DNA of 64,000 nucleotides from Candidatus Nomurabacteria bacterium RIFCSPLOWO2_01_FULL_41_18 (GTDB lineage Bacteria; Patescibacteriota; Minisyncoccia; Phycocordibacterales; UBA9973). Of the stretch, positions 33,733 to 60,384 are shown one piece after another. The DNA lies in contig MFUZ01000003.1 of NCBI GenBank assembly GCA_001785865.1, forward strand, positions 15,048-79,047, written 5' to 3'. The notes below the pieces were generated by a model that made no database searches, was not told the origin of the DNA, and was given only the letters and a program-made list of their open reading frames with translations. Position numbers and translations under genes: made by a program. Positions within the stretch are counted from its first letter, which is position 1. Each line of letters opens with the position of its first letter.

Positions 33733-34620
33733 ATGAATAAAAACATAAAAGACACTCAATCGTCCATATCCACCCAGTCTTCTAATTTTGGAGAACAGGG
33801 AGCTCTCGTGTCCTTTAGCAAGACCTACCAGCCTGCTATTGTAAATAAGGCCGGCAAGCTGATCACAGCATTGTACATGGTAACGGACGTAATGGACAAA
33901 GAAGAACCGATAAAAAATAAGTTAAGGACATTGGGTACAGAAATCATATCAGACATGCATTCAGTGCCATCGGATATAGATAGTAAAATTACGGAAATCA
34001 TGTCCTTTTTGAATATAGCTACAGCCATGAGCTTTATTTCAGAAATGAATTGCTCTATTCTCAAAAAAGAATTTTCAGTCTTACAACAATCCATAAAAGA
34101 ATCAGCTCAAATGAAGCCTGCCTGGCTCGAGGATTTTTTGGAAGAAGAATTTCCTCCCCTTCTTGATAAGGAGGGGAATGAGGGGAGGTTTCTGGAGAAT
34201 TCACCTCACCCCAACCCTCTCCTTATTAAGCCTGCCCGCCTGGAGCGTTCGGGCGGGGAGAGGGGGAGTCCAATTTCTAAAGGACATGTTAGAATTGGTG
34301 TCCAAAAGAGAGACGCCTTTTTAAAAATTATAAAGGACATGTCCGATAGAAGTATAGTTTCACAAGGTGTTCACACAGGATCTGATTTTGGTGTATTAAA
34401 GAAACAAAGACGCAACGACATCATCAATATGGTGAAGGTTGTTGGCGGGAGTGCTACTATAACGGACATCAGGGACCAAGTTCAGATGGCTCCAGCCCAG
34501 GCCGGCCTGCTCGTTTCTTGCAGTGAAAAAACGTTGCAAAGAGAGTTGATGTCCATGACGAAGGACGGTCTATTGAAGAAGACAGGGGAAAAAAGGTGGA
34601 GCCGGTATTTCATCAAATAA
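33733..34620 (+). CDS. hypothetical protein with a C-terminal winged-helix domain; a GC-rich hairpin repeat is embedded in frame
   Basis: C-terminus ATITDIRDQV...SEKTLQRELMSMTKDGLLKKTGEKRWSRYFIK resembles Fic/RecG-type wHTH tails. Nucleotides 34141-34290 (EEFPPLLDKEGNEGRFLENSPHPNPLLIKPARLERSGGERGSP) are made of CCCCTT..AAGGGG-type hairpins. Confidence 0.45.
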   Translation: MNKNIKDTQSSISTQSSNFGEQGALVSFSKTYQPAIVNKAGKLITALYMVTDVMDKEEPIKNKLRTLGTEIISDMHSVPSDIDSKITEIMSFLNIATAMSFISEMNCSILKKEFSVLQQSIKESAQMKPAWLEDFLEEEFPPLLDKEGNEGRFLENSPHPNPLLIKPARLERSGGERGSPISKGHVRIGVQKRDAFLKIIKDMSDRSIVSQGVHTGSDFGVLKKQRRNDIINMVKVVGGSATITDIRDQVQMAPAQAGLLVSCSEKTLQRELMSMTKDGLLKKTGEKRWSRYFIK

Positions 34621-37295: not shown

Positions 37296-37327
37296 CCCCC
37301 GCCTCTTACGAGAGGCCGGGGTTTTTT
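37296..37327 (+). terminator. rho-independent terminator
   Basis: CCCCCGCCTC-TTACGA-GAGGCCGGGG followed by TTTTTTGTTTTT. Confidence 0.75.
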
Positions 37328-37361
37328 GTTTTTATTGGAGAAATTGTTTATAATCAATTTT

Positions 37362-39287
37362 ATGGCGCGAACATGGATAGTATGTATAACGGTTGTTTCT
37401 ATTTTTTTATTTCCTCTATTATATATAGGAGGATTTTCTTTCCCGGCGATTTTTCCCCACGCTATGTTTATATTTTTTATATCAGAGCTATTGCTTTTAC
37501 TCTTTTTGTGGGGCGGAATACGCAAACAACAATTGGTTTTCAAAAAAAGTCTTCTTACTGCGGGGCTTTTGGCATACATTGTCGTTTTATTTATTTCCGC
37601 GCTCGCGGGCGCTGATTTCTTGCAGTCGTTTTGGTCAAGCTATAGTCGGATGACTGGCTTGGTCACCTGGGTTCATTATTTTATTTTGTTTTTCGTTCTC
37701 TCGTCGGTTTTAGAACGGCAGGACTGGAAATATGTTTTTCGGGCGTTGATTCTTTCCGCAATTGTGCTTGCGATAGGGTCTTTTCTAGGACCGACTGGTT
37801 TCAATATCGGATGGAAACCGATTGCAGGGGCAGGATCGTTACTAGGAAACAGTAGCTACAGCGGTATCTATTATGTACTGGTGTTTTTTATGTCTGTTGT
37901 CGGATTTGCATTGGAAGACAGAAGAAAATGGAAATATATATACGGATTCGGCTGGCTAATAATATTCATTAGTCCTGATCTGTTTAATTTTCAATTTTTC
38001 ACGGGAGCGATATCTTTCTCTGAAATTTTCGGAAACCCCTTTTTGCTTCTTGGGTATGCGCGGGCGTCAACTGTGGCATTGTGGACGGGGATTGTCTTAC
38101 TGGGGATTTTGTATGGCATCCATACTATATCTAAAGTTTTTATCCAGAAGATGCTTTTGGGGATTGTGTTTGTTTGTCTTAGTGGAGGGTATGTGTTCGG
38201 CTTCTTGTCTATCATCAACAAGCAGGGAATTGTCTATGAAAAATATATAGAGGAGGAGGGCGAACATATTCGGTCAAGTGTGTGGAATATTGCCTTACAG
38301 AGCATAAAGGAACGTCCATGGTTTGGCTACGGGCTGGAGAACTTTGAGCATACATATCAAAAACATTTAAACGCAAGCATGATTGAGAATAAAAATGATT
38401 TGCGGATGGTTACGCTTAGAGAGACTTTATGGTTTGATATGGTGCATAATACAACACTGGAATCGCTAGTTTATAACGGTGTTATTGGTACGCTTACAAA
38501 AATATTGCTTTTGGGAATAGTTCTTTTTCTGTGTATGCGCCGGTATTTTCAAAAGAGAGAATTTTATTTCCTAGTTGTACCTTTCGTTTTTATTTTGCAT
38601 TTACTCCAGACACAGACATCGTTTGAGACAGACAGCGGGTTACTGCTCTTGTTTTTATTGCTTGCCTTTCTAGTCTCGCGCGAAGAAAAGATCATTGCCT
38701 TGTCGCTTCCCGGAAACAGGTGGTGGTACAGAGTTGGGGCTGTGGCATTGTTTATGGTTACGTTGTATAGCTTTATATTTGTTCCAATTCGTGAGAATAA
38801 GACATTGGCAAATATACAAAGTGCGGCATATGTTGATAAAAGAATTCCTCTATATAAAGATTTGTACTCTTTACGTATGTCTCCCGAAAAGAGTTTGCGG
38901 ATTTTATCCGGTAAATACACGGCTGGTATTGTTACCAAATATGAAGACATTTTACAGTATCAACAGTCGGACAATGTCCGCAAGGAATTGAATATATATC
39001 TTGACTTGTATGAACACTATTTACCACGTTATGAGAATAGTTACAGGTATTTGATTGACTATGCAAATGTCATACACATCGCGTATCTTTTTGGTATTAA
39101 TGAAACAGAGAAGGGTGAAACGCTGTCGCGTCGAGCACTTTCTATCTCACAGTCATATCCTCATGCGTACTGGTTTCTCGCGTTTAATATGTATCGTCAA
39201 GAAAGGTTTGACGAAGCAAAAGAGTATATGCAAGCGGCGCAAACAATTGATCCATCAATAAAATCTGACTTTCTGTATAAAAATTAA
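37362..39287 (+). CDS. O-antigen ligase / Wzy_C-family polytopic membrane protein with a C-terminal TPR-like domain (WaaL/PglL-like)
   Basis: 10+ TM helices and a periplasmic loop with RPWFGYGLENFEH, typical of Wzy_C. Soluble C-terminal ~200 aa with helical repeats. Start could be 37326. Confidence 0.6.
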   Translation: MARTWIVCITVVSIFLFPLLYIGGFSFPAIFPHAMFIFFISELLLLLFLWGGIRKQQLVFKKSLLTAGLLAYIVVLFISALAGADFLQSFWSSYSRMTGLVTWVHYFILFFVLSSVLERQDWKYVFRALILSAIVLAIGSFLGPTGFNIGWKPIAGAGSLLGNSSYSGIYYVLVFFMSVVGFALEDRRKWKYIYGFGWLIIFISPDLFNFQFFTGAISFSEIFGNPFLLLGYARASTVALWTGIVLLGILYGIHTISKVFIQKMLLGIVFVCLSGGYVFGFLSIINKQGIVYEKYIEEEGEHIRSSVWNIALQSIKERPWFGYGLENFEHTYQKHLNASMIENKNDLRMVTLRETLWFDMVHNTTLESLVYNGVIGTLTKILLLGIVLFLCMRRYFQKREFYFLVVPFVFILHLLQTQTSFETDSGLLLLFLLLAFLVSREEKIIALSLPGNRWWYRVGAVALFMVTLYSFIFVPIRENKTLANIQSAAYVDKRIPLYKDLYSLRMSPEKSLRILSGKYTAGIVTKYEDILQYQQSDNVRKELNIYLDLYEHYLPRYENSYRYLIDYANVIHIAYLFGINETEKGETLSRRALSISQSYPHAYWFLAFNMYRQERFDEAKEYMQAAQTIDPSIKSDFLYKN

Positions 39288-40331: not shown

Positions 40332-41171
40332 ATGAATAAAAAAAACTTAAAAGACATTAAAATAGCGATAGTGGGTGTCGGAATGGTCGGAGGAGCAATG
40401 GCTAATTATTTTAAAAAAGCTGGAAGAACTCCGTTTCTGTATGATCCCCACAAGAACATGGGTTCCAAAGGAGATGTGAACCAAGCAGATGTTGTTTTTA
40501 TTTGTGTGCCAACCCCGTTTTTGAAAGATGGGAGTGGATTCGACTTGTCGTATGTAAAGGAAGCTTGTGAATTTTTAGAAAAAGGGAAGATCGTGGTCAT
40601 CAAATCAACCGTTGTTCCCGGAACTACAGAGAAGCTCCAGAGGGAATACCCTCATCTTAAGTTTTTATTTAATCCAGAGTTTTTAACGGAAATTACCGCT
40701 GATCAGGATATGAACTATCCTGATCGCCAGATTCTGGGATATACCAAAGAGAGTTACAACGTTGTTGGTCACTTGATGCGACTACTGCCACTTGCGCCGT
40801 ATGAGAAAATAATGCCCGCGACAGAAGCAGAGATGGTGAAGTATTACGGGAACACTTGGTTTTCCGTGAAAGTAACCTTTGCCAATCAGATGTACGACCT
40901 CTGCGAGAAATTGGGCATTGATTACGATTTGGTAAAGGAAGCCGCCGCAGCTGATAAGCGTATCGGTCCGTCACACCTTGAGGTGTGGCACAAAGAATAT
41001 CGGGGATATGGTGGCAAGTGTTTGCCGAAAGATACACGCGCTCTCATTGAGCTCGCTGACTCTATAGGCGTGGATATGAAACTTCACAAGATGGCGGAAG
41101 AGATAAACAATAGAATGATGGATGAACAGGGAATAGAAGACCCCGAGAAATTTTCAAAGAGAGAGGGCTAG
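40332..41171 (+). CDS. UDP-glucose/GDP-mannose dehydrogenase-family protein lacking the usual C-terminal domain (279 aa)
   Basis: N-terminal Rossmann motif IAIVGVGMVGGAMA, and the catalytic Cys region GYGGKCLPKDT (compare GGSCFPKD). Ends well before the usual UDP-binding domain. Confidence 0.55.
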   Translation: MNKKNLKDIKIAIVGVGMVGGAMANYFKKAGRTPFLYDPHKNMGSKGDVNQADVVFICVPTPFLKDGSGFDLSYVKEACEFLEKGKIVVIKSTVVPGTTEKLQREYPHLKFLFNPEFLTEITADQDMNYPDRQILGYTKESYNVVGHLMRLLPLAPYEKIMPATEAEMVKYYGNTWFSVKVTFANQMYDLCEKLGIDYDLVKEAAAADKRIGPSHLEVWHKEYRGYGGKCLPKDTRALIELADSIGVDMKLHKMAEEINNRMMDEQGIEDPEKFSKREG

Positions 41172-42446: not shown

Positions 42447-43397
42447 GTGCTAATCGTTAATATGTTTTCACGAATCAAAAATTTTCCACACCAATTCTTT
42501 TTTACAGGGGTGTCAAAGTTCCACATTTTTTGGCGTGGATTTCAACTATTATTCTATGAAATATTTGGCAAAAAACAGATCGTTTCCAATGTCAATGGTT
42601 TCTCGATGCTTCTAGACTTGCAGACTCCGGGCATATCAAAGGCGCTGTTTGTTTACGGTACAAGAGAGATTCTTGACACACAAATTGTGCAAGAGGTTAT
42701 GCGCGACAATATGGATGTTATTGAAGTTGGGGGGAATATCGGCTATTATACTCTTTTAGAAGCTAATGGGAGCGCGGGCACAATCTATGTGTTTGAACCG
42801 GATCCAAGAAATAAACCGATTCTTGAGAAGAATATACGAATGAACAATTTACAAGATCGTATTAAACTTTATCCTTGGGCCGTCGGAGACAAGTCTGGCA
42901 ATCAACAGTTTTATTTGGGACGCAAATCAAATTTAAGCAGTACGCAACCTCGGTTCGGAACTACCACGGGAGGACAATTAGAGGTAAAATCTATTAAACT
43001 GGATGATTTTAAGCCGGCATACGCCGCTTCATTCTTGCGCATGGACATTGAGGGCGCAGAGGACTCTGTGATTCGTGGCATGGAAAAAATACTTTTACAA
43101 GGCAAGCCATTTGCTTTTTTGATTGAGCTTCATCCCACTCTATATAAAACGCTTAACATTCCCTTTGTTGAGACTTTGCGTCATTTAAAGGACATTGGTT
43201 TTATTTGTCGCTATGCAATTTCCGCAGGCGTTATTGAACATCCCTTGCTTATATCAAAAGGGTATAAACCCATCCGTGGCGTTCAAGAGACGGAAAAAGG
43301 GCATGGGTTGTACGAACACATTAAGATGGACGATCTTATAGAAATGATGGACGAAAAGAAAAAAATTGTTCGCTCCGTTTTATTAGTGCGTGAATAA
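42447..43397 (+). CDS. FkbM-family methyltransferase
   Basis: IEVGGNIGYYTLLEA, and the downstream FkbM pattern (YPWAVGDKSG...DIEGAE). Confidence 0.65.
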   Translation: MLIVNMFSRIKNFPHQFFFTGVSKFHIFWRGFQLLFYEIFGKKQIVSNVNGFSMLLDLQTPGISKALFVYGTREILDTQIVQEVMRDNMDVIEVGGNIGYYTLLEANGSAGTIYVFEPDPRNKPILEKNIRMNNLQDRIKLYPWAVGDKSGNQQFYLGRKSNLSSTQPRFGTTTGGQLEVKSIKLDDFKPAYAASFLRMDIEGAEDSVIRGMEKILLQGKPFAFLIELHPTLYKTLNIPFVETLRHLKDIGFICRYAISAGVIEHPLLISKGYKPIRGVQETEKGHGLYEHIKMDDLIEMMDEKKKIVRSVLLVRE

Positions 43398-44937
43398 AAA
43401 TACAGGTATGGTAAAAAATACTTCTTTAATAGATTTATTAAAAAAAGGAAGCATTTCATTGTGGGGATATCACGACAAATGTCTTCCCGATTTATTGTTA
43501 GAAAATCATAATGTTTGCATTCACACACGCGACAAACCCTCTACAATTTCACGGGAACAATCAGAAGTTTGTTTTTTAGACAGGGAAATAATTAAAGCGC
43601 TACTGGTGGCATTTCCCCAAAATTCTCGATATATTCTTGTGCGTCTTGCATTCAGAACCTCGTGGCTTATAGGATTTTTTGGGATTATTCGCTGGCTCGC
43701 CCAAAAACAATTTATTTTTAGAGGAATACTACCTTTGCGATCAAGAAAGTCTTGGCAGTTTTGGGTGGTTCTCGAGCGCAGAAAACAAAAAAAAGTGGTC
43801 CAACAGTCCAATTTGTCGGCAGAAATCGGAGTGCAGGGTTTGTTGGACTTTCTGCGAAAAGAAGATATAAATTATGTTGTTTTGCGCTCTTTTGATAAAT
43901 TGCCGAAACTTGCTAGAGAGGGCGGTGATCTTGATATTCTTGTAGCAGACAAAGATGAATTACGAGTGAGAGAATTTTTAAATTTGAATCAGGGTAATAT
44001 TCCTATAGATATATATTCGGTTTCCGGTTTGTCTGCAGGTGGCCTTCCTTATTACCCCCCTCCTCTCGCCAGAAAAATTTTAGAAAGCGCAGTCGAAGGT
44101 CCTGCAGGATCGCGCGTGCCGGCTTTAAGGGAGGCATTTTTAAGTTTTGCCTATCATGTGCTCTATCATAAGGGTTCCCTCACCGAACACAGACATATGG
44201 AAAATCTTTTATTAATGGCCCAAAAGATGGATATTTTTATGGATATTACACTGGAGAACTTAGAGGAGTATCTTGCCGGCCAAGGATGGCGACCGAAACG
44301 CGACACGCTTGCCAAAATTGCTGTGATGAATGAATGGGTTTGGAAAAGATTCTTAGCCGATTCTTCCCCGAAAAACGAGATTGGCCTGGGGGTTTTTATA
44401 CTGAAGGGTGGGGCGGTAAGGCTGGGCTTTGCTAGCGCCGTGGTAAAAGCTATTGAAAGGGATGGTTTTGCCATAATTCATAAAATTCAATTTAATGATA
44501 AGCAAAAACATTACGCCGCAGATCATTTAAGAGGCGGGAACTGGATTTATCAGTCATCGATTTCGCCGGAGGATTATCTACCCGCTATGGCAATTGTTGT
44601 GCTTGATCGCAATCCCATAAAATGGATTAATGAGCAAGCGCTCGGCCAAGTCCCTGCTGGCCGGATGCACGCATTAAAGCTGAAACTGCGGAAAGAGTTT
44701 GATTTAAGCGGACAAAAAAGCTTTATTCATGGCACCGACAATACAACCGAAGCATGGGAATACATAGAAATTTGTTTTCCGGGAGAGTTAGCTCTTATCG
44801 AAAAGAAAATGGAAAATTTCAAACAAAAAAATGGTTTCAATTTTTTAAAAAAAATGCATCTATATTTACGTCTATCGCCTTATTTATTACGGCATGGTTT
44901 GAAAAGATTTATTATTAAGCGTATTATAGAGCGATGA
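43390..44937 (+). CDS. multidomain hypothetical protein with a C-terminal nucleoside-diphosphate-kinase-like domain and a possible minimal nucleotidyltransferase motif
   Basis: C-terminal: GVFILKGGAVRLGFASAVVKAIERDGFAII...KHYAADHL, then AIVVLDRNPIKWIN, then FIHGTDNTTEAWEYIEICF. These parallel the NDK motifs ERTFIIKP.AV..G....I..R.E..GF...HY...; the Kpn loop; and N.IHGSDS.E.A.REI..WF. Mid-region: REGGDLDILVADKDE. Confidence 0.5.
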   Translation: MNKNTGMVKNTSLIDLLKKGSISLWGYHDKCLPDLLLENHNVCIHTRDKPSTISREQSEVCFLDREIIKALLVAFPQNSRYILVRLAFRTSWLIGFFGIIRWLAQKQFIFRGILPLRSRKSWQFWVVLERRKQKKVVQQSNLSAEIGVQGLLDFLRKEDINYVVLRSFDKLPKLAREGGDLDILVADKDELRVREFLNLNQGNIPIDIYSVSGLSAGGLPYYPPPLARKILESAVEGPAGSRVPALREAFLSFAYHVLYHKGSLTEHRHMENLLLMAQKMDIFMDITLENLEEYLAGQGWRPKRDTLAKIAVMNEWVWKRFLADSSPKNEIGLGVFILKGGAVRLGFASAVVKAIERDGFAIIHKIQFNDKQKHYAADHLRGGNWIYQSSISPEDYLPAMAIVVLDRNPIKWINEQALGQVPAGRMHALKLKLRKEFDLSGQKSFIHGTDNTTEAWEYIEICFPGELALIEKKMENFKQKNGFNFLKKMHLYLRLSPYLLRHGLKRFIIKRIIER

Positions 44938-45710
44938 AACAAAAAGCGTGGATCAAAAACTTTCTTAAAAAATATTTTCCACCAGCACACGCTTTTTCAG
45001 TGCGCTGTTCGTTGGTTCTCCGGGCATTTTTGAGATATGGGTTGGATTGCAACCCGTTGCGTCTTTTTTGGATTGTTGAGCCTTATACTATGGTAGGGCA
45101 TGCGCGACTTTTTAATGCATACGATCTGAGTCAACGTTGCCAAAAAGAGCATATTGAAGGGGCGTTTGTTGAATGCGGAGTTTGGCGAGGAGGATGTGCG
45201 GCTATAATGGCTGCTGTCGCAACTCGTCATGGTGCAAGGCGGAAAACATGGCTCTTTGACTCGTTTGAAGGATTACCGCACCCAACAGAAAAAGACGGCG
45301 AAAAAGCCGCATTATATGCCAAGCAAAATGTGACTGGGGAACTGGCGTCCATTAAGATAAATGTAGGACCCCTTCAGGATGTTGAGAGGCTGTTATTCAA
45401 GATTCTCAAACTTCCACGAGAGTCTGTTTATGCAGTGAAAGGGTGGTTTCAAGAGACACTGCCCCAAAAGAAAGATCAGATTGGACCTATTGCGATACTT
45501 CGCATGGATGGCGACTGGTACGAATCAACAAAGTGTATTTTAGATAATCTTTACGACAGTGTAATACCAGGCGGATATATTATAGTGGATGATTACGGAA
45601 GCTGGGAGGGGTGTAAAAAGGCAGTTGATGACTTTTTCCGCGCCAGGATGCAGCCTGAAATTGACTTTAAAATGATTGATCTTGCGGGTCTTTATTTCCA
45701 AAAACCATGA
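44934..45710 (+). CDS. TylF/MycF-family class I SAM-dependent O-methyltransferase
   Basis: GAFVECGVWRGGCAAIMAAV, WLFDSFEGLP, and LRMDGDWYESTKCILDNLYDSVIPGGYIIVDDYG. Confidence 0.75.
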   Translation: MKQKAWIKNFLKKYFPPAHAFSVRCSLVLRAFLRYGLDCNPLRLFWIVEPYTMVGHARLFNAYDLSQRCQKEHIEGAFVECGVWRGGCAAIMAAVATRHGARRKTWLFDSFEGLPHPTEKDGEKAALYAKQNVTGELASIKINVGPLQDVERLLFKILKLPRESVYAVKGWFQETLPQKKDQIGPIAILRMDGDWYESTKCILDNLYDSVIPGGYIIVDDYGSWEGCKKAVDDFFRARMQPEIDFKMIDLAGLYFQKP

Positions 45711-45717
45711 CGAGACT

Positions 45718-46518
45718 ATGTATTTAAAAATAAAAAAATTCCTTAAAAAGCGTATCAAAACCGGCGGGCTTCTATGGCATTTGTTGGTGTTTCCCCAAAG
45801 GTTTCAACGTCATAGGTTTAGAATTTTCAAAGGGTATTGGGAGGCGCGCGAAACAAAAGAAATGATAGCTCCTTTGAAGACGCGAGAATTTCTAAAAGAA
45901 CATGTTTCTATAGTTATTCAAAGTGCCGGTCGGGGTGAATATTTAAAAAGGACTATTGAAGCTCTACGAAAATATTTTGACTACGACCCAACGAAAACCC
46001 ACTGGCTCATTATTGACGACTATCCGGATTCAAAAGAAACGAGGGATTATATTAAAAGTTTAGATTTTTTTGAAAAAGTGATCTTGAACGAGAAGAACCG
46101 CGGAATCGGCTACTCAATTAACAGGATTTTCGCTGGAGTTCACACTGAATTTATTTTTTATTGCCAAGAGGATTTTGAAATTCTCCAGTCCGTGCCAATA
46201 CAGCGGATGATTGATATTCTTCGGGGGAATTCGCATTTAAGCCAGCTTATGATCAAGGGGACCAAGGAATATGTTGGAGCGTTGCAGACAGACAGGGGTT
46301 ACTTTGAATATTATAGAATGTTCGGATTTTGGCCGTATCTTGCGTCCATGAATTTTTTGCGCGAGCATCTTCCTTTTCCTTTTTATTTTACGGCTCCCGA
46401 GTTTACATTTCGACTGCATAAAAAAGGATGGAGTACTGCTGGCGTTTTAGGAAACAAAAACGATTCCCCCTTGGTAAGGCACATAGGAGAAGAACGAAAA
46501 GTATTTGTGGTAAAATAG
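45718..46518 (+). CDS. glycosyltransferase family 2-like protein
   Basis: VSIVIQSAGRGEYLKRTIEAL ... WLIIDDYPDSKET ... NEKNRGIGYSINRIFAGVHTEFIFYCQEDF follows the GT2 pattern. The ATG at 45718 is used to avoid overlapping the upstream gene. Confidence 0.5.
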   Translation: MYLKIKKFLKKRIKTGGLLWHLLVFPQRFQRHRFRIFKGYWEARETKEMIAPLKTREFLKEHVSIVIQSAGRGEYLKRTIEALRKYFDYDPTKTHWLIIDDYPDSKETRDYIKSLDFFEKVILNEKNRGIGYSINRIFAGVHTEFIFYCQEDFEILQSVPIQRMIDILRGNSHLSQLMIKGTKEYVGALQTDRGYFEYYRMFGFWPYLASMNFLREHLPFPFYFTAPEFTFRLHKKGWSTAGVLGNKNDSPLVRHIGEERKVFVVK

Positions 46519-46545
46519 TATTTATGGTAAAATAGCATTACACAT

Positions 46546-47466
46546 ATGAATTATCACGATCTCCTCACATTAGATGACAAAGCTTACAAAGAGTTTAGTT
46601 ATTACATAGAACAATCCAGGGGAATTCTCACTCATCTCGTTCGCCTAGGCCGGTATAAATGGAGATATATTTTTCATGCACTTTTACGCCTAGGATTTAC
46701 GCCGAGGTTTATTATAAAAAGTCAAAAAACATTTTGGGGCAAGGATTTATATATGCGTATTTTAGACCAGCAGTTTGGGCCATTGCTGTTGTTTGGCACA
46801 TTGATTATAGAGGAACACAGCCTAACAAGATTTTTAATTAAAAGAATAAAATCGGATGATGTATTTTATGATGTTGGGGCAAACTATGGATTTTACACTC
46901 TTCTCGGAAATGAGCTCGCAGGAGAAATTCATTCTTTTGAGCCTCTGCCCTCGGTTTTTTTATGCCTTGAAAAAAGTATAAAGGGAATGAGCGCTAATTG
47001 CTATTTGAATAATATTGCTTTGAGTGATACTGCAGGAAAAATAAATTTTTACGATACCAGTAAAAAACACAGGGGGACGGCGGCAAGCTCTATGATGAAA
47101 AAAGTTGCAGAGGAACGTCTCAAGAATTACAATACAATCTCTGTTTCTTCAACAACGCTGGATGACTATGTTAGTAATCACAAACCCCCTACGATCATTA
47201 AAATAGATGTAGAGGGAGCAGAGGAGTTAGTGGTTCGAGGTGCAATGGAGACATTCTCAAAACATAAACCACTTATTATAATGGAAATATGGGGGAAGGA
47301 AAGATTGTATGGAGATTCCGCGCATTTTAAAGCCGTGCGCATGCTTTTAGGGCTTGGGTATAAAGCACATCACTTAGATGAGGATGGGGAGATTCATTAT
47401 CTTAATGAAGATTCTCTCGGTCGGCACATGGCTAAATTGAAACGTGATAACATAGTTTTCTCTTAA
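46546..47466 (+). CDS. FkbM-family methyltransferase
   Basis: FYDVGANYGFYTLL, and IKIDVEGAEELVVRGA. Confidence 0.65.
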   Translation: MNYHDLLTLDDKAYKEFSYYIEQSRGILTHLVRLGRYKWRYIFHALLRLGFTPRFIIKSQKTFWGKDLYMRILDQQFGPLLLFGTLIIEEHSLTRFLIKRIKSDDVFYDVGANYGFYTLLGNELAGEIHSFEPLPSVFLCLEKSIKGMSANCYLNNIALSDTAGKINFYDTSKKHRGTAASSMMKKVAEERLKNYNTISVSSTTLDDYVSNHKPPTIIKIDVEGAEELVVRGAMETFSKHKPLIIMEIWGKERLYGDSAHFKAVRMLLGLGYKAHHLDEDGEIHYLNEDSLGRHMAKLKRDNIVFS

Positions 47467-47507
47467 ACTATCAGTATAAGTAGGTTTTATTTTAAAAACT
47501 ATAGAAC

Positions 47508-48275
47508 ATGAATCCTAGAAAATTATACACTTTTCTTGCGAGGTGCTACAAATTCGGAATTTTTTGGTGTATCAAAATGAGCACCACAAAATTATTGTCT
47601 CGACGGGATGAGTTCGGTATACGCATCCCCGGCTATAAACAAAAAATGTTTTTGAGAAAACATACTTCAGACGAAGATGCATTTGATCAGATTTTTGTTG
47701 CGCAAGATTACACCAATCCTTTTTTAGATGGTTTTTCTCCTAAAGTTATAATTGATGCCGGAGCCTATGTTGGATATAGCTCGGTTTATTTTGCCAATAA
47801 ATACTCAGATGCAAAAATTATAGCTATAGAACCCGAAGACTCTAATTTCGAGTTACTTCAAAAAAACACTCTAAACTATAATAATATTTATTGTATACAG
47901 GCGGCGTTGTGGGGCGAACCGGAAAAATTGAAAGTTGTTGAGGGTGATGCTGGAAGACATTGGGCGTTCAAAGTAGAAAAGCTTTCGGGTGATGGAAATG
48001 CGAATAGCAGGGCAGTGTCCGTAGTAACTATGCCACAGATTATAGCTACCTATAAATTGGAGACTATAGATATTTTAAAAATTGATATTGAGGGTGCGGA
48101 GAAGGAACTTTTTTCTAAGAACTATGAATCATGGATCTCGAAGTGTAAGATTATTGTCATTGAGTTGCACGATAGGTTTTTGCCTGGCTGCAGTAAGGTA
48201 TTTTATTCCGCTCTTTCTACTCTCCCGTTTAATCAGCATACTAAAAGAGAGAATATTTTTGTGGATTTAAGATAA
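47508..48275 (+). CDS. FkbM-family methyltransferase
   Basis: IIDAGAYVGYSSVYFA, and LKIDIEGAEKELF. Confidence 0.65.
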   Translation: MNPRKLYTFLARCYKFGIFWCIKMSTTKLLSRRDEFGIRIPGYKQKMFLRKHTSDEDAFDQIFVAQDYTNPFLDGFSPKVIIDAGAYVGYSSVYFANKYSDAKIIAIEPEDSNFELLQKNTLNYNNIYCIQAALWGEPEKLKVVEGDAGRHWAFKVEKLSGDGNANSRAVSVVTMPQIIATYKLETIDILKIDIEGAEKELFSKNYESWISKCKIIVIELHDRFLPGCSKVFYSALSTLPFNQHTKRENIFVDLR

Positions 48276-48288
48276 CTTAAGAAAATTT

Positions 48289-48879
48289 TTATACCCCTTC
48301 TTTAGTAAATTTATAAATTACCTGAGATTTATACGGCTCTGTGTGAGTGCATTGAAAGCCTGCATTCTCAAAGATCTTAATGAATTCCACTGAACTGTAA
48401 TAATTAACCCAGCCCATCACTCCTCGGTTACTTTTGTTCGTATCTGTTACTGCGTATGAGGCAATAATGGTATCGACGAAATGCGATAAATGTGATACTA
48501 CCTTTGGTACGTCATTAACATATTCAAAAACACCGCTGAGAACAGCAACGTCGTAAGATTTGAATTTCGGAAGTGGGTCATTATTTAGGTCGCAGACAAT
48601 CGTATCTTCCCCTCTGTGAACAAGGTCAGATGGAGTATAAGAGCAATTTGTGGGTAATAAGGTTTTCAAAACGAGTTTCCCCGCGCCAAATTCAATTACC
48701 GACGTTCCCGGCTCAATGAGTTTGGCCATTTGTTCGGTTCTTGTGTCCCAATCCTGACGTAAATTTTTATTGTTACTCCACTTTCGGTAATCGGATTTTC
48801 CAGTGGCTTTTCTTAAAGACGTATAAATCCCTCTTTTTAGCCAAACAATTTTCCTTAGCAGTGTTTTAATCCCACTCAT
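48289..48879 (-). CDS. class I SAM-dependent methyltransferase
   Basis: Motif I VIEFGAGKLVLK, with downstream acidic and DVAVLSGVFEY motifs. Confidence 0.6.
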   Translation of the reverse strand: MSGIKTLLRKIVWLKRGIYTSLRKATGKSDYRKWSNNKNLRQDWDTRTEQMAKLIEPGTSVIEFGAGKLVLKTLLPTNCSYTPSDLVHRGEDTIVCDLNNDPLPKFKSYDVAVLSGVFEYVNDVPKVVSHLSHFVDTIIASYAVTDTNKSNRGVMGWVNYYSSVEFIKIFENAGFQCTHTEPYKSQVIYKFTKEGV

Positions 48880-48899
48880 TATAATTTTATTGCTTCTGC

Positions 48900-49829
48900 T
48901 CAGTTATTTATAAAATTCTCGCACGTTTTCCGTAACGCTTCCTGTAATGGTGTAATATCGCGCGGATTAGGCAGGGGATTTTCCCAATTTATTTCATGAA
49001 TATTTTTCTTGAAGTCTTCTGTGGAGTAAGCCCTTAGGTAATCAAGAAGCCCGCCGAATCTCGGATCGTTTAAATCTTTATATACAAATATGACAGGCGT
49101 GCCAAACGCCAAGCAAGGAAGTGCGCAGTGGAGCCTTGAAGTTACCACAAGTTTTGCTCCAGCGTACGTTTTGAGCAGTTCACGAGCCTTCTTAAATTTA
49201 TCTCCTTCTTGGATCTTGTTTAGAAAAAACCATGAGAGTGTGTTAAGCCCTAATTTTCTTATAAAAGATTTCAAAGGGTGAGGGATAAGAGCAGATGCTT
49301 TTTTCGTATATTGAGAGTATCCCCAATGGTTGGTGTATATAGAGTGGTCTCGTATTTCTTTTGGCAATACTTTTTCAGCCTCTTTTTCAAGATCAGCGAT
49401 TACTATATTGTTGTGTTTGTCTACGGATGGCTTTTTGAGTGTCAAAGTCAGGCATCCTGAAAAGTATGCTTGCACTCCTTTATCTTCAAGTATTTTTTGC
49501 GTATGCGTGTCTCTACAGCCAATAGGTTCATGTTTCTTGAAGTAGTCTATTGATTTTGGTGAAGTAAAGTTTTCAACGGCGCACTGTGCAATATGGAACG
49601 AGAGGAACAGCGGGTCTATGATGTCCGATGGCGGCCAATTGTGCGGTTCATGGCTAAACCATCCATTCATGATAATTCTTATCTTGTTTTTGCTTTTTAC
49701 TTTGTTGAGGGTACCTGCATCAAGGCGTAGGTCAACGCGGGGAAGAAATTGTAATGTCGCCACGCTTTGTATTTCATTTCCCACATTTCCAGTTTTGTGG
49801 GATAATAATCCATATATGAATTTTTCCAT
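48900..49829 (-). CDS. polysaccharide pyruvyl transferase-family protein (tentative)
   Basis: N-terminal GNVGNEIQ, as in the PS_pyruv_trans GN.GD..I motif. ~300-aa size and locus context fit. Confidence 0.4.
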   Translation of the reverse strand: MEKFIYGLLSHKTGNVGNEIQSVATLQFLPRVDLRLDAGTLNKVKSKNKIRIIMNGWFSHEPHNWPPSDIIDPLFLSFHIAQCAVENFTSPKSIDYFKKHEPIGCRDTHTQKILEDKGVQAYFSGCLTLTLKKPSVDKHNNIVIADLEKEAEKVLPKEIRDHSIYTNHWGYSQYTKKASALIPHPLKSFIRKLGLNTLSWFFLNKIQEGDKFKKARELLKTYAGAKLVVTSRLHCALPCLAFGTPVIFVYKDLNDPRFGGLLDYLRAYSTEDFKKNIHEINWENPLPNPRDITPLQEALRKTCENFINN

Positions 49830-49915
49830 ATATTTTAACTATACACTTTTTTTTTCTAATGAAAAGCGAATAAAATAGTACAAATAGAGTTTTATGTATA
49901 TAATGACTTTATCAA

Positions 49916-50569
49916 ATGAAAGAAATAATTTATAAGGATTTTGGAGAAGCTAATCGCAAGTATGAACTCGATCGCATAGAGTATGAACTTGCTCTTGGTA
50001 TTATGGCTGGTAGGGAATTTGGCAATGATGTCCTTGATGTTGGAGCAGGTAAAGGTGAGTTTACTGATATGCTTTCAAAGCGTGGATACAGAGTAAATTG
50101 TGTCGAAGGGACAAAAAAGCTTTTTGAAGAACTTAAAGAAAAAGGATACAAGAGTGTGCTTGTTGATTTGGAGGAAGAAAAATTACCTTTTCCAGATAAT
50201 TCTTTTGATTTGGTTGTTTCTTTGGAGGTAATAGAACATCTGTGGAATACAGATCATTATTTAAGCGAGTTAAAGCGAGTGGTTAAACCAAATGGATATG
50301 TGATTATCACCACCCCGAATTATAATTACTGGAGTTTTCGTCTGCGCGCATTCTTTGGACAAGCAGAGAAGTTTTTAACGCAGGACTATCATAAAAAATT
50401 ATTTACAGCGCGTTCTCTCCCACAGAGATTAGCTCCATATTTTGAAATTTTGAAATTTAAAGGACGGGGAATGGTACCCAAAACACGAAAGCATTATGCT
50501 ACGCCATTTTTTCTTAATTTTTTTGCTATGCACATCGGAGTCTTATGCAGGCCCAAGAAAGACATATGA
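49916..50569 (+). CDS. class I SAM-dependent methyltransferase
   Basis: VLDVGAGKGEFTDML, DLVVSLEVIEHL, and VKPNGYVIITTPN. Confidence 0.7.
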   Translation: MKEIIYKDFGEANRKYELDRIEYELALGIMAGREFGNDVLDVGAGKGEFTDMLSKRGYRVNCVEGTKKLFEELKEKGYKSVLVDLEEEKLPFPDNSFDLVVSLEVIEHLWNTDHYLSELKRVVKPNGYVIITTPNYNYWSFRLRAFFGQAEKFLTQDYHKKLFTARSLPQRLAPYFEILKFKGRGMVPKTRKHYATPFFLNFFAMHIGVLCRPKKDI

Positions 50570-55306: not shown

Positions 55307-56427
55307 AAATTATTCATGTTATTACAGGTCTTAATGTCGGTGGGGCTGAAATGATGCTGTATAAGATCTTGCAACATTCCTCCGGCAAAGAATTTCTACA
55401 TGAAGTGATATCTCTCACAGATGTCGGTTTAGTTGGTGAGAAGATACAAAAGCTTGGTGTACCCGTGCGCGCTCTTAATATGAAAGAAATTGATTTACCA
55501 ATTACGGTTATTCGTCTTGCGCTCTGGCTCCGAAAGAGTAATCCTGATGTTGTGCAGACTTGGATGTATCATGCAAACCTTGTTGGCGGACTCGCGGCGA
55601 CGCTCTGTTTTAAGAAAATACCAGTTGTGTGGGGGATAAGACAAAGTGATCTTAATCCAAAACTGAATAAGCGGAGGACTATATTGGTCGCACAAGTTGG
55701 AGCTTTTCTTTCTCGCTTTATTCCTGGGAATATTATTATAAATTCAATACGAGGTAAAAAAAATCACGAAGCTTTGGGATATGAAGCAAGTAAAATGGTT
55801 GTAATTCCAAACGGTTTTGATTTAAAAGTGTTCCGTCCCGACACAGAAGCGAGAATTTTGTTTCGTCAAAAGATAGGAATTTCTCCAACGTCTTTTATTA
55901 TTGGATCTGTCGCGCGGTTCGATCCATCAAAAGATCAAAAAACTCTCATCCAGTCGGCTAAAATTTTGCTCAACGGATACAAGGATCTGCATTTTGTTTT
56001 GTGCGGTAGGGGAATGACTGATAAAAATAAGCTGCTCACAGAATGGATTAACGAAATAGATATAGCTCCCCGGTTACACCTTTTAGGTGAGTGTGAGGGC
56101 ATAGAAAATATTACCGCTGCTTTTGATGTTGCCGTGCTTTCTTCGGTTTCAGAAGGATTCCCGAATGTGATAGGAGAGGCGATGGCTTGTGGCGTTCCTT
56201 GTGTTGTAACCGACGCAGGGGATTCTGCCTATATTGTCGGAGATACTGGTTTGATGGTGCCGCCTAGTGATCAGGTGGCTTTAGCTAATGCCTTTCGGCA
56301 GATGATTGAGATGAAAGATATAGAACGTAAGGCGCTCGGGGAACGAGCGAGGAAGCGTATAGAGGAAAATTTTTCTATTGATCTGGTTGTTAAAAAATAC
56401 ATAGAATTGTATACTAGTTTGGCATGA
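55303..56427 (+). CDS. glycosyltransferase family 4
   Basis: N-terminal GGAEMML, and C-terminal EGFPNVIGEAMACGVPCVVTDAGDS. Confidence 0.75.
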   Translation: MKIIHVITGLNVGGAEMMLYKILQHSSGKEFLHEVISLTDVGLVGEKIQKLGVPVRALNMKEIDLPITVIRLALWLRKSNPDVVQTWMYHANLVGGLAATLCFKKIPVVWGIRQSDLNPKLNKRRTILVAQVGAFLSRFIPGNIIINSIRGKKNHEALGYEASKMVVIPNGFDLKVFRPDTEARILFRQKIGISPTSFIIGSVARFDPSKDQKTLIQSAKILLNGYKDLHFVLCGRGMTDKNKLLTEWINEIDIAPRLHLLGECEGIENITAAFDVAVLSSVSEGFPNVIGEAMACGVPCVVTDAGDSAYIVGDTGLMVPPSDQVALANAFRQMIEMKDIERKALGERARKRIEENFSIDLVVKKYIELYTSLA

Positions 56428-57872
56428 ATATTTTTATAGGACTTCTTTTTATTTTAGGTCTTTCAGGTGTCTTGGGAGCGATTATGTGGAAGCTCGGTAT
56501 GCGCGATAGGCGAGCGTATATTTTATTTGGAATTTCTTTATTGATACATATTCTCGCGGTTCTTTTTATTTATGCATTTGACTTTCAACCTTTTAGTGGA
56601 GGCGGGGGAGATTATGGTAGCTATCACAAAACCGCTGTGCTCATTACCGACGAAATCGGACAAGGGAATCTTTTGCCAGACATAGAAATAAGAGGGGTTC
56701 CCCACCACTTTCCCACTATTATTGGGTATGTTTATTTTTTCACTGTCCCCTCTATGGTGGTCGGGCAACTTTTCAATGCATTTGTTGCATCAGTGGGGAT
56801 TATGCTCTTATATTTTATAGTACTTGAATTCTCACAATCGTTTCGGTGGGCGTTTGGTATTGGGCTCTTGGCAAATCTGTATCCCAGCTTTTTATTTTAC
56901 TCCAGCTTGCTCCTGAAAGATGTTTTTGTAGTTTTATTTGCGCTGGTGGGAGCGTTTCTAATGCTTCGTATTTTGAAACGTTTCTCTTGGGGATTATTTG
57001 CATTGTTTTATATATCCCTAATAGCACTGACTCACTTCCGTTTCTATGTGGGGATTGTTCTTTTGATGGCCTTTTCTATTTCTTGGTTTTTGCTTTCGAG
57101 CAAACCGATCAAAGCGCGTTTTGCTTATGGGCTTGGGATGATCTTTCTGCTCGGTTTTATTCCACAGATGTTTGGAATGGGATACTATGGATTTTCAACA
57201 CTTCGGCATTATACAAATCCAGATACCCTTACTTATTACCAGGATATTGCTTATACAGGCAAAGATGTTGCTTCGCCCTCATCCGTCCCACCTGCCCCTG
57301 ATGTTGTCTCTCCGCCTCCACCTGCCCCATCTACGCCTGTTGATGTTACTCCTTCATCATCTGCCCCACCCACGCCTATTGTTGATCCCGTACCTCCTCC
57401 CACCCCATCTACACCTTTTGGTGAGCTTTTAGAAGAGTCTTCATCTTCAGGAGAAAATAGTGGTTTTACTTCTACGGTTGATTTAAAAGTTAGTTTCGGA
57501 AGCCCTATGGCATTTATTACCACCTTCCCTAAATCTTTTGCTTTTGTGGCAATTGGTCCGTTTCCTTGGCAGTTCACTGCAGATAGACATTACCTCGCTC
57601 TCTTAGAAACAATTCCATGGACTATTCTAAGTGTTTTGGCGTTGTTAGGTATCATACATACATTACGATCTCGACACAGAGTATTGTCACTTGCGATATT
57701 TAGTTTCGGGCTTTTCCTTATCCTTACCATTTATATAAATAATTTTGGCATTACAACACGCATTCGCATGCCGGCGTTTTTCTTGTTGCTTGCCTTTGTT
57801 CCGTTTGGGGTTGTTGAATATCAACGTTGGAAATATTATATTTATAATTTTCTGTATGGAAACAAAAAGTAA
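56424..57872 (+). CDS. polytopic membrane protein with a Pro/Ser/Thr-rich loop; possible GT-C-fold glycosyltransferase or polymerase
   Basis: ~11 TM helices. An acidic first loop (DFQPFSGGGGDYGSYH). A PAPDVVSPPPPAPSTPVDVTPSSSAPPTPIVDPVPPPTPSTP linker. Family not firmly recognised. Confidence 0.35.
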   Translation: MNIFIGLLFILGLSGVLGAIMWKLGMRDRRAYILFGISLLIHILAVLFIYAFDFQPFSGGGGDYGSYHKTAVLITDEIGQGNLLPDIEIRGVPHHFPTIIGYVYFFTVPSMVVGQLFNAFVASVGIMLLYFIVLEFSQSFRWAFGIGLLANLYPSFLFYSSLLLKDVFVVLFALVGAFLMLRILKRFSWGLFALFYISLIALTHFRFYVGIVLLMAFSISWFLLSSKPIKARFAYGLGMIFLLGFIPQMFGMGYYGFSTLRHYTNPDTLTYYQDIAYTGKDVASPSSVPPAPDVVSPPPPAPSTPVDVTPSSSAPPTPIVDPVPPPTPSTPFGELLEESSSSGENSGFTSTVDLKVSFGSPMAFITTFPKSFAFVAIGPFPWQFTADRHYLALLETIPWTILSVLALLGIIHTLRSRHRVLSLAIFSFGLFLILTIYINNFGITTRIRMPAFFLLLAFVPFGVVEYQRWKYYIYNFLYGNKK

Positions 57873-59568: not shown

Positions 59569-60384
59569 ATGAGAAAAATCATTAAGATAATAAGTTATTT
59601 GAGATATCTCCCAGTAATCATTTTTAAAATTAAAAATTGGCCAATTTTTTTATTGAATTATGCCCATCTTCGAAATACAGCCGCCGAATATATTTTCAGA
59701 AACGGTCTTAGAATAAAAACTTTTGACTCTGTTAGTGCTACTACTATAGCCGTAATTTTTATCAAAAGAGATTACGGTGGCATCCCTAATGATTCTGTTA
59801 TAATAGATGTCGGAGCGAATATAGGAGTTTTTTCAATATTTTCTGCTGGTAAAGGCAATGTTGTTTACAGCTACGAACCGATGCCAGACAATTTTCACTT
59901 ATTAGAAGAAAATATAAAGCTTAATAAACTAGAAAACAGAGTTTTTGCTTTTAATCTTGGAGTGGCGGCTAAGCGAGAGAAAAGAAAACTATATCTAGGC
60001 AAGTCGCCTTTTCACTCGTTTCTACCAGTGGGGAGTTCACCATTTAATGTTTTACATAATGACAGAGAAGGCGTAAGTAAACAAAGTTTTTTAGAAGTTG
60101 ATTGTATCTCTTTAAAAGATATTTTTGATGAAAATCAAATAAGTGAGTGCGATATTCTAAAAATAGATTGCGAAGGCGCAGAATACGAGATTTTATATAA
60201 TCTACCGGACATTTATTTTAAAAGAATTAAAGAAATTAGAATGGAGTATCATAATCACTTAAATCAATATAAGAATAATGGAGAGTATTTAAAAAGTTTT
60301 CTGATAAATAGGGGTTTTTCTGTTGAGAAATTAAAAAAGGGATCACCTTACCAGGGTGATGTTTGGTTTAAAAAAGTAGATTAA
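59569..60384 (+). CDS. FkbM-family methyltransferase
   Basis: IIDVGANIGVFSIFSA, and LKIDCEGAEYEIL. Confidence 0.65.
   Translation: MRKIIKIISYLRYLPVIIFKIKNWPIFLLNYAHLRNTAAEYIFRNGLRIKTFDSVSATTIAVIFIKRDYGGIPNDSVIIDVGANIGVFSIFSAGKGNVVYSYEPMPDNFHLLEENIKLNKLENRVFAFNLGVAAKREKRKLYLGKSPFHSFLPVGSSPFNVLHNDREGVSKQSFLEVDCISLKDIFDENQISECDILKIDCEGAEYEILYNLPDIYFKRIKEIRMEYHNHLNQYKNNGEYLKSFLINRGFSVEKLKKGSPYQGDVWFKKVD

Follow-up and report, generated by a model that had tools for sequence, protein, structure and literature searches.

The 64,000-nucleotide stretch of DNA analysed here (the window), from Candidatus Nomurabacteria bacterium RIFCSPLOWO2_01_FULL_41_18 (contig MFUZ01000003.1, positions 15,048 to 79,047 of the forward strand), contains a Wzx/Wzy-type polysaccharide cluster at about 37.3 to 63.7 kb. 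The RecA encoded in the window shows 94–95% identity to RecA of Nomurabacteria/Paceibacterota-type genomes, in agreement with this origin. One open reading frame (ORF) of this cluster encodes a member of a large undescribed protein family that is tied to glycan assembly and in which a nucleotidyltransferase (NTase) is fused to a nucleoside diphosphate kinase (NDK)-like domain. An earlier reading of the same DNA, made from the letters alone (the sequence-only reading), had placed the gene inside a glycan locus, as the surrounding cluster bears out. The features of the gene are as follows.

43390..44937, plus strand: the whole ORF of 515 aa, with a GTG start and an alternative in-frame ATG at 43408 (Met7).
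43426..43779, plus strand: N-terminal alpha/beta domain (aa 13–130), with a possible class-I methyltransferase-like Rossmann fold.
43807..44019, plus strand: NTase core (aa 140–210), in which G179-D180-L-D182-I-L-V-x-D187-x-D189 is the metal-binding motif and D207 a candidate for the third carboxylate.
44050..44379, plus strand: helical NTase subdomain (aa 221–330), helical in the model, with the invariant motifs Y255-H256-x-x-Y259-H260-K261-G262 and G299-W300-R-P302-x-x-D305-T-L, plus N314 and W316.
44386..44784, plus strand: divergent NDK-like domain (aa 333–465), placed by alignment to canonical NDK residues.
44728..44730, plus strand: codon for His447, which aligns with the nucleophilic phosphohistidine of NDKs, the His of their IHGSD motif (228/228 relatives).
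44788..44934, plus strand: C-terminal basic amphipathic helices (aa 467–515), modelled as helices 467–480 and 485–514.

The gene overlaps by 8 nt with the stop of the upstream FkbM-family methyltransferase gene and by 4 nt with the start of the downstream TylF-family methyltransferase gene. Since the alignment with P0001, the closest homologue, starts at about residue 11, the ATG at 43408 may be more likely than the GTG at 43390 to be the true start. The strings quoted in the sequence-only reading are all found in the 515-aa ORF: VFILKGG at aa 335–341, KHYAADHLRGGNW at aa 373–385, SFIHGTDNTTEAWEYIEICF at aa 444–463 (nt 44719–44778) and GGDLDILVADKDE at aa 178–190, with nt 43924–43959 being GDLDILVADKDE.

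The last 170 or so residues had been taken as an NDK-like domain. The resemblance is real, but the domain is about 133 aa long (333–465), and the remaining 50 aa form a basic helical tail. Pfam PF00334 matches the window protein at 28.2 bits (E = 2e-6; residues 336–465, profile positions 5–132 of 135), a small margin above the gathering score of 27, and E falls to 4.2e-7 when only the C-terminal 180 aa are searched. The same profile matches 23 of 39 relatives individually (E ≤ 1), and NDKs were the sole matches when a family profile built from 102 sequences was compared with PDB sequences (best E = 7.7e-5). In the phmmer search of PDB sequences, the IHGTD of the window protein pairs with the IHGSD of the Thermus and Mycobacterium NDKs. 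An AlphaFold2 model based on the 102-sequence family alignment (mean pLDDT 91, pTM 0.88) has an NDK alpha/beta fold in its C-terminal domain by model comparison, the closest structures being the mimivirus NDKs 2b8p and 3ejm, and identity to NDKs is about 16%. Judging from the PDB titles of '+Kpn' mutants, the wild-type mimivirus NDK lacks the Kpn loop. Lack of an NDK profile match or a misaligned catalytic His had been named as grounds for giving up the assignment; the match lies above the gathering score, the His is aligned and the fold agrees.

Conservation was counted in an alignment of 228 relatives spanning both domains. The canonical NDK residues correspond to the family as follows: i) K12 to K339, always basic (104 Lys, 124 Arg), ii) F60 to W385 (225/228), in the family motif L-R381-G-G-N-W385, iii) R105 to R434 (228/228), within K430-x3-R434, iv) N115 to S444 (127 Ser, 94 Asn), v) H118 to H447 (228/228), vi) S120 to T449 (124 Thr, 80 Ser), and vii) D121 to D450 (227/228). 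R381 (228/228) and K430 (227/228) are newly invariant, and the most distant relatives (about 27% identity) have the canonical N-x-x-H-S-S-D motif back. The NDK-like site appears to retain the residues that bind the base and ribose of the nucleotide and the phosphate being transferred, with a remodelled phosphate cradle.

The 330 or so N-terminal residues had been described as being of unknown function, with one segment reminiscent of minimal nucleotidyltransferases. That resemblance holds, and two domains are recognised in the region, one methyltransferase-like and the other the NTase. In the model, aa 140–330 is a nucleotidyltransferase of the ANT(2'')/Lnu/MenT type, PF14907-like, with the NTase fold followed by a helical subdomain, and the structurally closest NTases are ANT(2'')-Ia (4xje), LnuA (4wh5), MenT1 (8an4) and TM1012 (2ewr). 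The [DE]h[DE]h metal motif is represented by D180 (223/228) and D182 (224/228). D187 is Asp in 209 and Asn in a further 12 of the 228 relatives, R166 is conserved in 217, and the D207 position holds Asp or Glu in 178 and Gly in 42, the latter being one paralogue clade. The helical subdomain, a probable nucleotide/acceptor pocket, is conserved at H256 (225), H260 (219), K261 (218), W300 (221), D305 (223), N314 (220) and W316 (224). An hG[GS] motif is not present upstream of DxD, the strand there being V-L-R166-[FWS]. PF14907 scores 11 bits against the window protein (E = 0.32), under its gathering score of 31.2, and is weakly matched by 10 of 39 relatives (best E = 2.4e-4); the family profile matched no PDB sequence over the N-terminal 330 aa. 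As to the phospho-alcohol transferases of the LicD/FKRP group, there was neither a LicD profile match nor an FKRP/LicD protein as the closest structural match. Judged by these residues, the catalytic centres of the NTase and the NDK-like domain both look active, and both seem to be under strong selection across the 228 relatives.

Several features went unmentioned in the sequence-only reading, namely the N-terminal methyltransferase-like domain, the basic tail, four replaced NDK residues and the kinase and glycosyltransferase (GT) fusions found across the family. The fold modelled for aa 13–130 suggests a degenerate methyltransferase-like Rossmann domain. Neither the Gly-rich motif I (GxGxG) nor the invariant acidic residue that binds the ribose of S-adenosylmethionine (SAM) is present in the alignment of this domain, it has no Pfam methyltransferase match, and only L63, L71, P76, G98, R101, R102 and W125 are near-invariant; a functional SAM methyltransferase was ruled out since no motif is conserved. 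The domain is probably accessory, because it is missing from many relatives. The C-terminal tail has a net charge of +4 to +6 per 18-residue window and contains no transmembrane segment, and the mean net charge over the last 45 aa across the family is +6.4, consistent with a peripheral membrane anchor.

The sequence-only reading had asked how widely the fusion is distributed, and the family proved to be large and conserved. A word-indexed search gave 137 relatives, nearly all of about 540 aa with full-length coverage and labelled 'hypothetical', from Paceibacterota, Nomurabacteria, Kaiserbacteria and one Heimdallarchaeaceae metagenome-assembled genome (MAG). When 1.84 billion cluster representatives were searched exhaustively with the family profile, 1,367 clusters (50% identity), most of them from Patescibacteria, reached E ≤ 1e-3, and 603 reached E ≤ 1e-30. 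A pattern scan of GTDB genomes, which relies on short patterns and found 9 loci, adds Saccharibacteria, Georgenia alba and Rhodobacteraceae bacterium HIMB11, in which a 443-kb contig carries two copies in tandem. The conserved core (profile positions of about 150–505) consists of the NTase and the NDK-like domain, whose fusion is obligatory throughout the family. Four architectures were found: 1) the core only (about 400 aa); 2) the core with the N-terminal accessory domain, as in the window protein (about 540 aa); 3) the core with a C-terminal protein-kinase-like domain (610–820 aa); and 4) an N-terminal GT2 or GT4 fused to the core (840–900 aa). The fused GT2s form two groups, unrelated to each other and to the neighbouring GT2s, and with the GT4 fusion this indicates at least three independent glycosyltransferase fusions.

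The fused kinase domain, present in many relatives, is compact and apparently active in the distant ones, its beta3 Lys, alphaC Glu and DFE Asp being invariant and its catalytic-loop Asp conserved in at least 90%. It matches generic protein kinases only (CK2, MELK with E of about 1e-7, and PknB); a WbdD-like identity was rejected, as WbdD was not matched at a useful level, nor were choline kinase and Kdo kinase. The family has no model in NCBIfam or PADLOC and no description in Pfam, no literature description of an NDK-NTase fusion was found, and the sources assign no functional name to its members, with the exception of 'nucleoside diphosphate kinase' given to P0073 by the Joint Genome Institute (JGI).

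About 16 loci of relatives were examined, and all are glycan loci with Wzx, Wzy_C-TPR, GTs and enzymes modifying nucleoside diphosphate (NDP)-sugars. The repeated neighbours are Wzx, Wzy_C-TPR, FkbM methyltransferases, GT4 and GT2, joined in one clade by NeuB and a CMP-sugar synthetase. The fusions, used as Rosetta stones, point to glycan assembly and phosphorylation. The most specific recurrent partners are Walker-A proteins of about 230 aa, whose genes directly adjoin the family gene in 7 of the loci (L001, L004, L005/L017, L010, L011, L014 and L015). A locus can have as many as three paralogues, and one of the proteins is fused to GT4 (P-loop::GT4, L004). These proteins (GxPGAGKTT) fall into three paralogous groups without a Pfam family, with G, K, T, D115, R163 and R167 invariant. 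Their likeness to thymidylate, adenosine 5'-phosphosulfate (APS) and deoxynucleoside kinases is confined to the P-loop (Walker A) and the LID arginines, and that to adenylyl-sulfate kinases is weak (2yvu, E = 3.8e-5). They probably are an undescribed group of glycan-pathway kinases. Their positions are as follows.

L001: 4287–4970 and 9306–10001.
L004: 13285–13986, 15784–16563 and 16566–18401.
L010: 11440–12132, 14122–14820 and 14780–15484.
Also present in L011, L014, L015 and L017.

No obligate orthologous partner gene was found, as the FkbM genes that lie upstream in different loci are not orthologues of one another, and NeuB, the sulfotransferases and the P-loop kinases were each rejected as universal partners, being present in a subset of loci only. 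A Wzy_C (O-antigen ligase/polymerase-like) protein with a C-terminal TPR fusion, 650–750 aa in length, recurs beside or near the family gene in loci of candidate phyla radiation (CPR) bacteria, at the following positions.

Window: 37326–39287.
L001: 14188–16443.
L007: 11673–13868.
L016: 8672–10840.
L019: 8772–10967.

A Sulfotransfer_1 gene lies directly upstream of the family gene in L014 (6103–6999) and a Sulfotransfer_2 gene in L001 (7255–7905), and L015 has a gene of the CysQ/inositol-monophosphatase family (Inositol_P, 10110–10916). This hints at sulfated surface glycans in some CPR bacteria, organisms not known to assimilate sulfate. In L010 (Rhodobacteraceae bacterium HIMB11, AVDB01000001.1, 8184–16753; GC 41.6%), two tandem family paralogues are followed by P-loop, methyltransferase, GT4, P-loop, P-loop and Wzx genes. 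As this order matches that of the CPR loci L004 and L011, the order and the GC content suggest that the whole cassette has moved horizontally between CPR bacteria and a cultured marine bacterium.

In the window itself, the cluster begins with Wzy_C-TPR, epimerase, short UDP-glucose-dehydrogenase-like, Wzx (minus strand), FkbM, the gene studied here, TylF and GT2 genes. It continues with two FkbM, class-I methyltransferase, pyruvyl transferase, methyltransferase, GT4, dehydratase, DegT and two GT4 genes, and ends with an ORF of unknown function (482 aa), two GT2, FkbM, GT4, initiating Bac_transf and DegT genes. No canonical sugar-1-phosphate nucleotidyltransferase is annotated in this locus (37–64 kb), and the window contains no sulfotransferase or NeuB gene.

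Four known systems resemble parts of this protein. 1) With NDKs (PF00334) it shares the His in (N/S)-x-x-H-(S/G)-(S/T)-D, the basic K12 position, an Arg matching R105 and an aromatic side chain where F60 stacks on the base. It differs in its low identity, in having Tyr458 in place of E129, in not conserving Y52, R88 and T94, in its own invariant R381-G-G-x-W385 and K430, in the lack of Kpn-loop equivalents, and in its constant position downstream of an NTase. 2) With the small NTases of the DNA polymerase beta (Pol-beta) fold (ANT(2'')-Ia, LnuA, MenT1, TM1012; PF14907, NTP_transf_5) it shares the D-x-D metal motif. However, it has no sequence-level match to the solved NTases and its PF14907 score is under the gathering threshold; the canonical G[GS] is replaced by L-R166-[FWS], the motifs Y-H-x-x-Y-H-K-G and G-W-R-P-x-x-D-T-L are its own, and it is fused to the NDK-like domain. 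3) The bifunctional sugar-activating enzymes include the kinase/adenylyltransferase HldE and the fucokinase/GDP-fucose pyrophosphorylase FKP, both established cases of a kinase fused to an NTase to activate sugars, and the AmgK-MurU pair. The logic of a kinase and a nucleotidyltransferase feeding a glycan pathway is shared with relatives in which a kinase is fused to the NTase-NDK module, but each component of the known enzymes has another fold and none has an NDK-type domain. 4) WbdD-type O-antigen terminators combine a methyltransferase, a kinase and a membrane-binding helix. Similarly, the family proteins are multi-domain, cytoplasmic and encoded in glycan loci, with a methyltransferase-like N-terminus, a kinase in relatives and a basic C-terminal amphipathic helix. 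In contrast to WbdD, their methyltransferase-like domain lacks SAM motifs and their kinase profile fails to retrieve WbdD; WbdD itself has no NTase or NDK-like domain, and the family loci are of the Wzx/Wzy type rather than the ABC-transporter type. Two orphan NTases comparable with those under 2) are, like the family, accompanied by a kinase. In a phosphonate cluster, the gene of a PF14907 NTase stands next to that of a thymidylate kinase (PMC8942020), the sole full-text mention of PF14907 that was found. PsmN, an uncharacterised NTase of the pseudomycoidin lasso peptide, has been modelled on ANT(2'') (4xje, 5cfs). It depends on its DxD motif and works downstream of the kinase PsmK, and the attachment of hexose to the phosphate requires it (PMC6993621). 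In vitro activity of PsmN is still lacking (PMC11912497). Since PsmN follows PsmK, NTases of this kind can act on a phosphate ester downstream of a kinase.

The GT, NDK, NTase and kinase activities predicted here all occur fused to the core somewhere among the relatives. NDK-type domains convert NDP to nucleoside triphosphate (NTP) via a phosphohistidine, Pol-beta NTases direct an attack on the alpha-phosphate of NTP with release of pyrophosphate (PPi), and Leloir glycosyltransferases release NDP. Because these four activities close a cycle, we favour, tentatively and at less than even odds, a coupled local recharging in which the NDK-like domain makes NTP and the NTase uses it to re-make a nucleotide-activated donor beside the glycosyltransferases. 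The sequence-only reading had offered two functions, regeneration of NTP/NDP-sugar precursors or a novel nucleotide-modifying enzyme; both agree with the present results, and the former corresponds to the reading favoured here. The protein would be cytoplasmic and probably membrane-peripheral, tethered by its basic tail, and would work with its two active sites within the Wzx/Wzy glycan assembly line, the methyltransferase-like domain serving as a non-catalytic accessory. As the conserved residues suggest, ATP would phosphorylate His447 and the phosphate would be passed to a nucleoside diphosphate, presumably the by-product of the neighbouring Leloir glycosyltransferases, to give NTP. The NTase could hold this NTP via Mg2+ on D180 and D182 (and possibly D207) and, with release of PPi, move the nucleoside monophosphate to a phosphate ester, for which a sugar phosphate is the likeliest candidate. 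A nucleotide-activated donor would then be formed beside the glycosyltransferase that uses it up. The sugar phosphate might come from the fused protein-kinase-like domain or the adjoining P-loop kinase in relatives and from elsewhere in the window. Kinase, NTase, GT and NDK would thus form a closed cycle from sugar to sugar phosphate, NDP-sugar, and glycan plus NDP, which is returned to NTP. The conservation of both centres, the directly adjoining P-loop genes, the glycan context of all loci examined, the HldE and FKP precedents and the lack of an annotated canonical sugar-1-phosphate nucleotidyltransferase in the window locus speak for this reading.

Several points weigh against local recharging. 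We know of no Pol-beta-fold NTase that makes NDP-sugars, and the known relatives of the NTase fold (ANT(2''), Lnu, MenT) nucleotidylylate hydroxyl groups. Canonical activating enzymes are present in loci of relatives (NTP_transferase in L010, CTP_transf_3 in L016 and L019), and the window's own locus has no P-loop kinase gene. One locus contains both tandem family paralogues and three P-loop kinase paralogues, which look more like substrate-specific decoration enzymes, and a membrane-binding tail would not be needed by an enzyme making a soluble precursor. In the NDK-like domain, the E129 position is Tyr458 (Tyr in 224/228), the Y52 position is variable, and the HMMER alignments show no conservation at R88 or T94; E129 orients the catalytic His in NDKs. 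With these four residues replaced, NDP kinase activity of the domain is not assured.

Nearly as likely as donor recharging, and likewise doubtful, is direct decoration of the glycan. A kinase, either the neighbouring P-loop protein or the fused protein-kinase-like domain, would phosphorylate a sugar of the lipid-linked repeat unit and the NTase would elaborate the phosphate or a sugar hydroxyl by nucleotidylylation or as a phosphodiester, the NDK-like domain supplying NTP locally. The structurally closest NTases, ANT(2'') (4xje) and LnuA, act on sugar-like hydroxyls, and the invariant aromatics of the helical subdomain are typical of sugar binding. The tandem paralogues and multiple P-loop kinases per locus, the fusion of family members to GTs that act on lipid-linked glycan, the P-loop::GT4 fusion in L004 and the basic amphipathic tail also agree with decoration, as do two precedents: PsmN, which follows PsmK, with hexose installed on the phosphate (PMC6993621), and the pairing of the PF14907 NTase with thymidylate kinase in the phosphonate cluster (PMC8942020). 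However, the role of the NDK-like domain is less obvious in this scheme, the window locus has no kinase, and PsmN has so far been without activity in vitro (PMC11912497).

It is improbable that only the NTase is catalytic, for example as a LicD/FKRP-like phospho-alcohol transferase or a nucleotidyltransferase, with the NDK-like domain as a nucleotide-binding or regulatory module. Eukaryotic RP2 and NME-like proteins are a precedent for such non-catalytic modules, and the change of E129 to Tyr, the loss of Y52, R88 and T94, the marginal Pfam score and the low score against the ndk equivalog (21 bits vs 155) are all in keeping with it. However, H447 is conserved in 228/228 relatives together with K/R339, R434, D450, K430 and R381, which is the pattern of a working phosphoryl-transfer site and not of a decayed one.

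Still less likely is sulfate activation by a non-orthologous counterpart of 3'-phosphoadenosine 5'-phosphosulfate (PAPS) synthase, in which the NTase would adenylylate sulfate and the 3'-OH would be phosphorylated by the NDK-like domain, by the adjacent APS-kinase-like P-loop protein or by both, so as to supply glycan sulfotransferases. NDK binds PAPS with the 3'-phosphate beside the catalytic His, and the sulfotransferase genes of L014 (directly upstream of the family gene) and L001, the CysQ-family gene of L015 and the weak resemblance of the P-loop neighbours to adenylyl-sulfate kinases would suit such a pathway. Nevertheless, sulfotransferases occur in only 2 of the approximately 16 loci and not in the window, the P-loop match is limited to the Walker A region, and the scheme has no precedent that we know of. 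A MenT/AbiEii-like toxin or anti-phage defence nucleotidyltransferase is scarcely credible and was ruled out: PADLOC matched neither the window protein nor two relatives, no antitoxin-like partner is present, and all loci examined are glycan loci, with GT fusions in the family. An ordinary housekeeping NDK with an N-terminal extension, which the above-threshold PF00334 match and the JGI name of P0073 might recall, was rejected almost with certainty, because the protein scores 21.3 bits against the NCBIfam ndk equivalog (NF001908; cut-off 155), and the four active-site replacements, the identity of about 16%, the obligatory NTase fusion and the location in a glycan operon also speak against it.

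It is possible, if rather doubtful, that the family represents a new class of glycan-pathway enzyme in which a phosphohistidine NDK-type domain and a Pol-beta-type NTase act as one coupled catalytic unit. Such a unit would be either a 'self-recharging' donor-regeneration module on glycosyltransferases or an installer of nucleotide- or phosphodiester-linked decorations on CPR surface polysaccharides; to our knowledge, neither chemistry has a described precedent for the NDK and Pol-beta NTase folds. CPR bacteria (Patescibacteria) are ultra-small episymbionts whose surface glycans probably mediate attachment to the host, and we are aware of essentially nothing on how these glycans are built. The family is a recurrent and strongly conserved component of their Wzx/Wzy loci, with a previously undescribed combination of two predicted nucleotide-handling centres. 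Should these be coupled, this would mean either a new way of saving nucleotides where glycans are assembled or a novel kind of glycan decoration, and a biochemical framework for the orphan PF14907-like NTases and PsmN would follow. The culturable carriers, Rhodobacteraceae HIMB11 and Georgenia alba, make the question experimentally approachable.

Some further observations concern the family and the window. P0117, from a Candidatus Heimdallarchaeaceae MAG (4-kb contig), is a full-length member with 34% identity and an Asgard archaeal attribution, which could reflect real spread between domains or a binning artefact. Two ORFs of the window are without a Pfam match, one of 482 aa between GT4 and GT2 genes (56424–57872) and one of 295 aa upstream of the cluster (33733–34620). 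The regions 42447–48275, 48289–50569 and 59569–60384 of the glycan locus are unusually rich in methyltransferase genes (four FkbM-family, one TylF-family and two class-I), and a polysaccharide pyruvyl transferase is encoded at 48900–49829 on the minus strand; together these suggest that the polysaccharide is heavily O-methylated and pyruvylated. The UDP-glucose/GDP-mannose dehydrogenase-like ORF at 40332–41171 (279 aa) has the central domain but lacks the C-terminal domain and some of the N-terminal one. Since a comparable short dehydrogenase of 292 aa is encoded in the related locus L015 (2312–3190), it may be a genuine short form and not a pseudogene.

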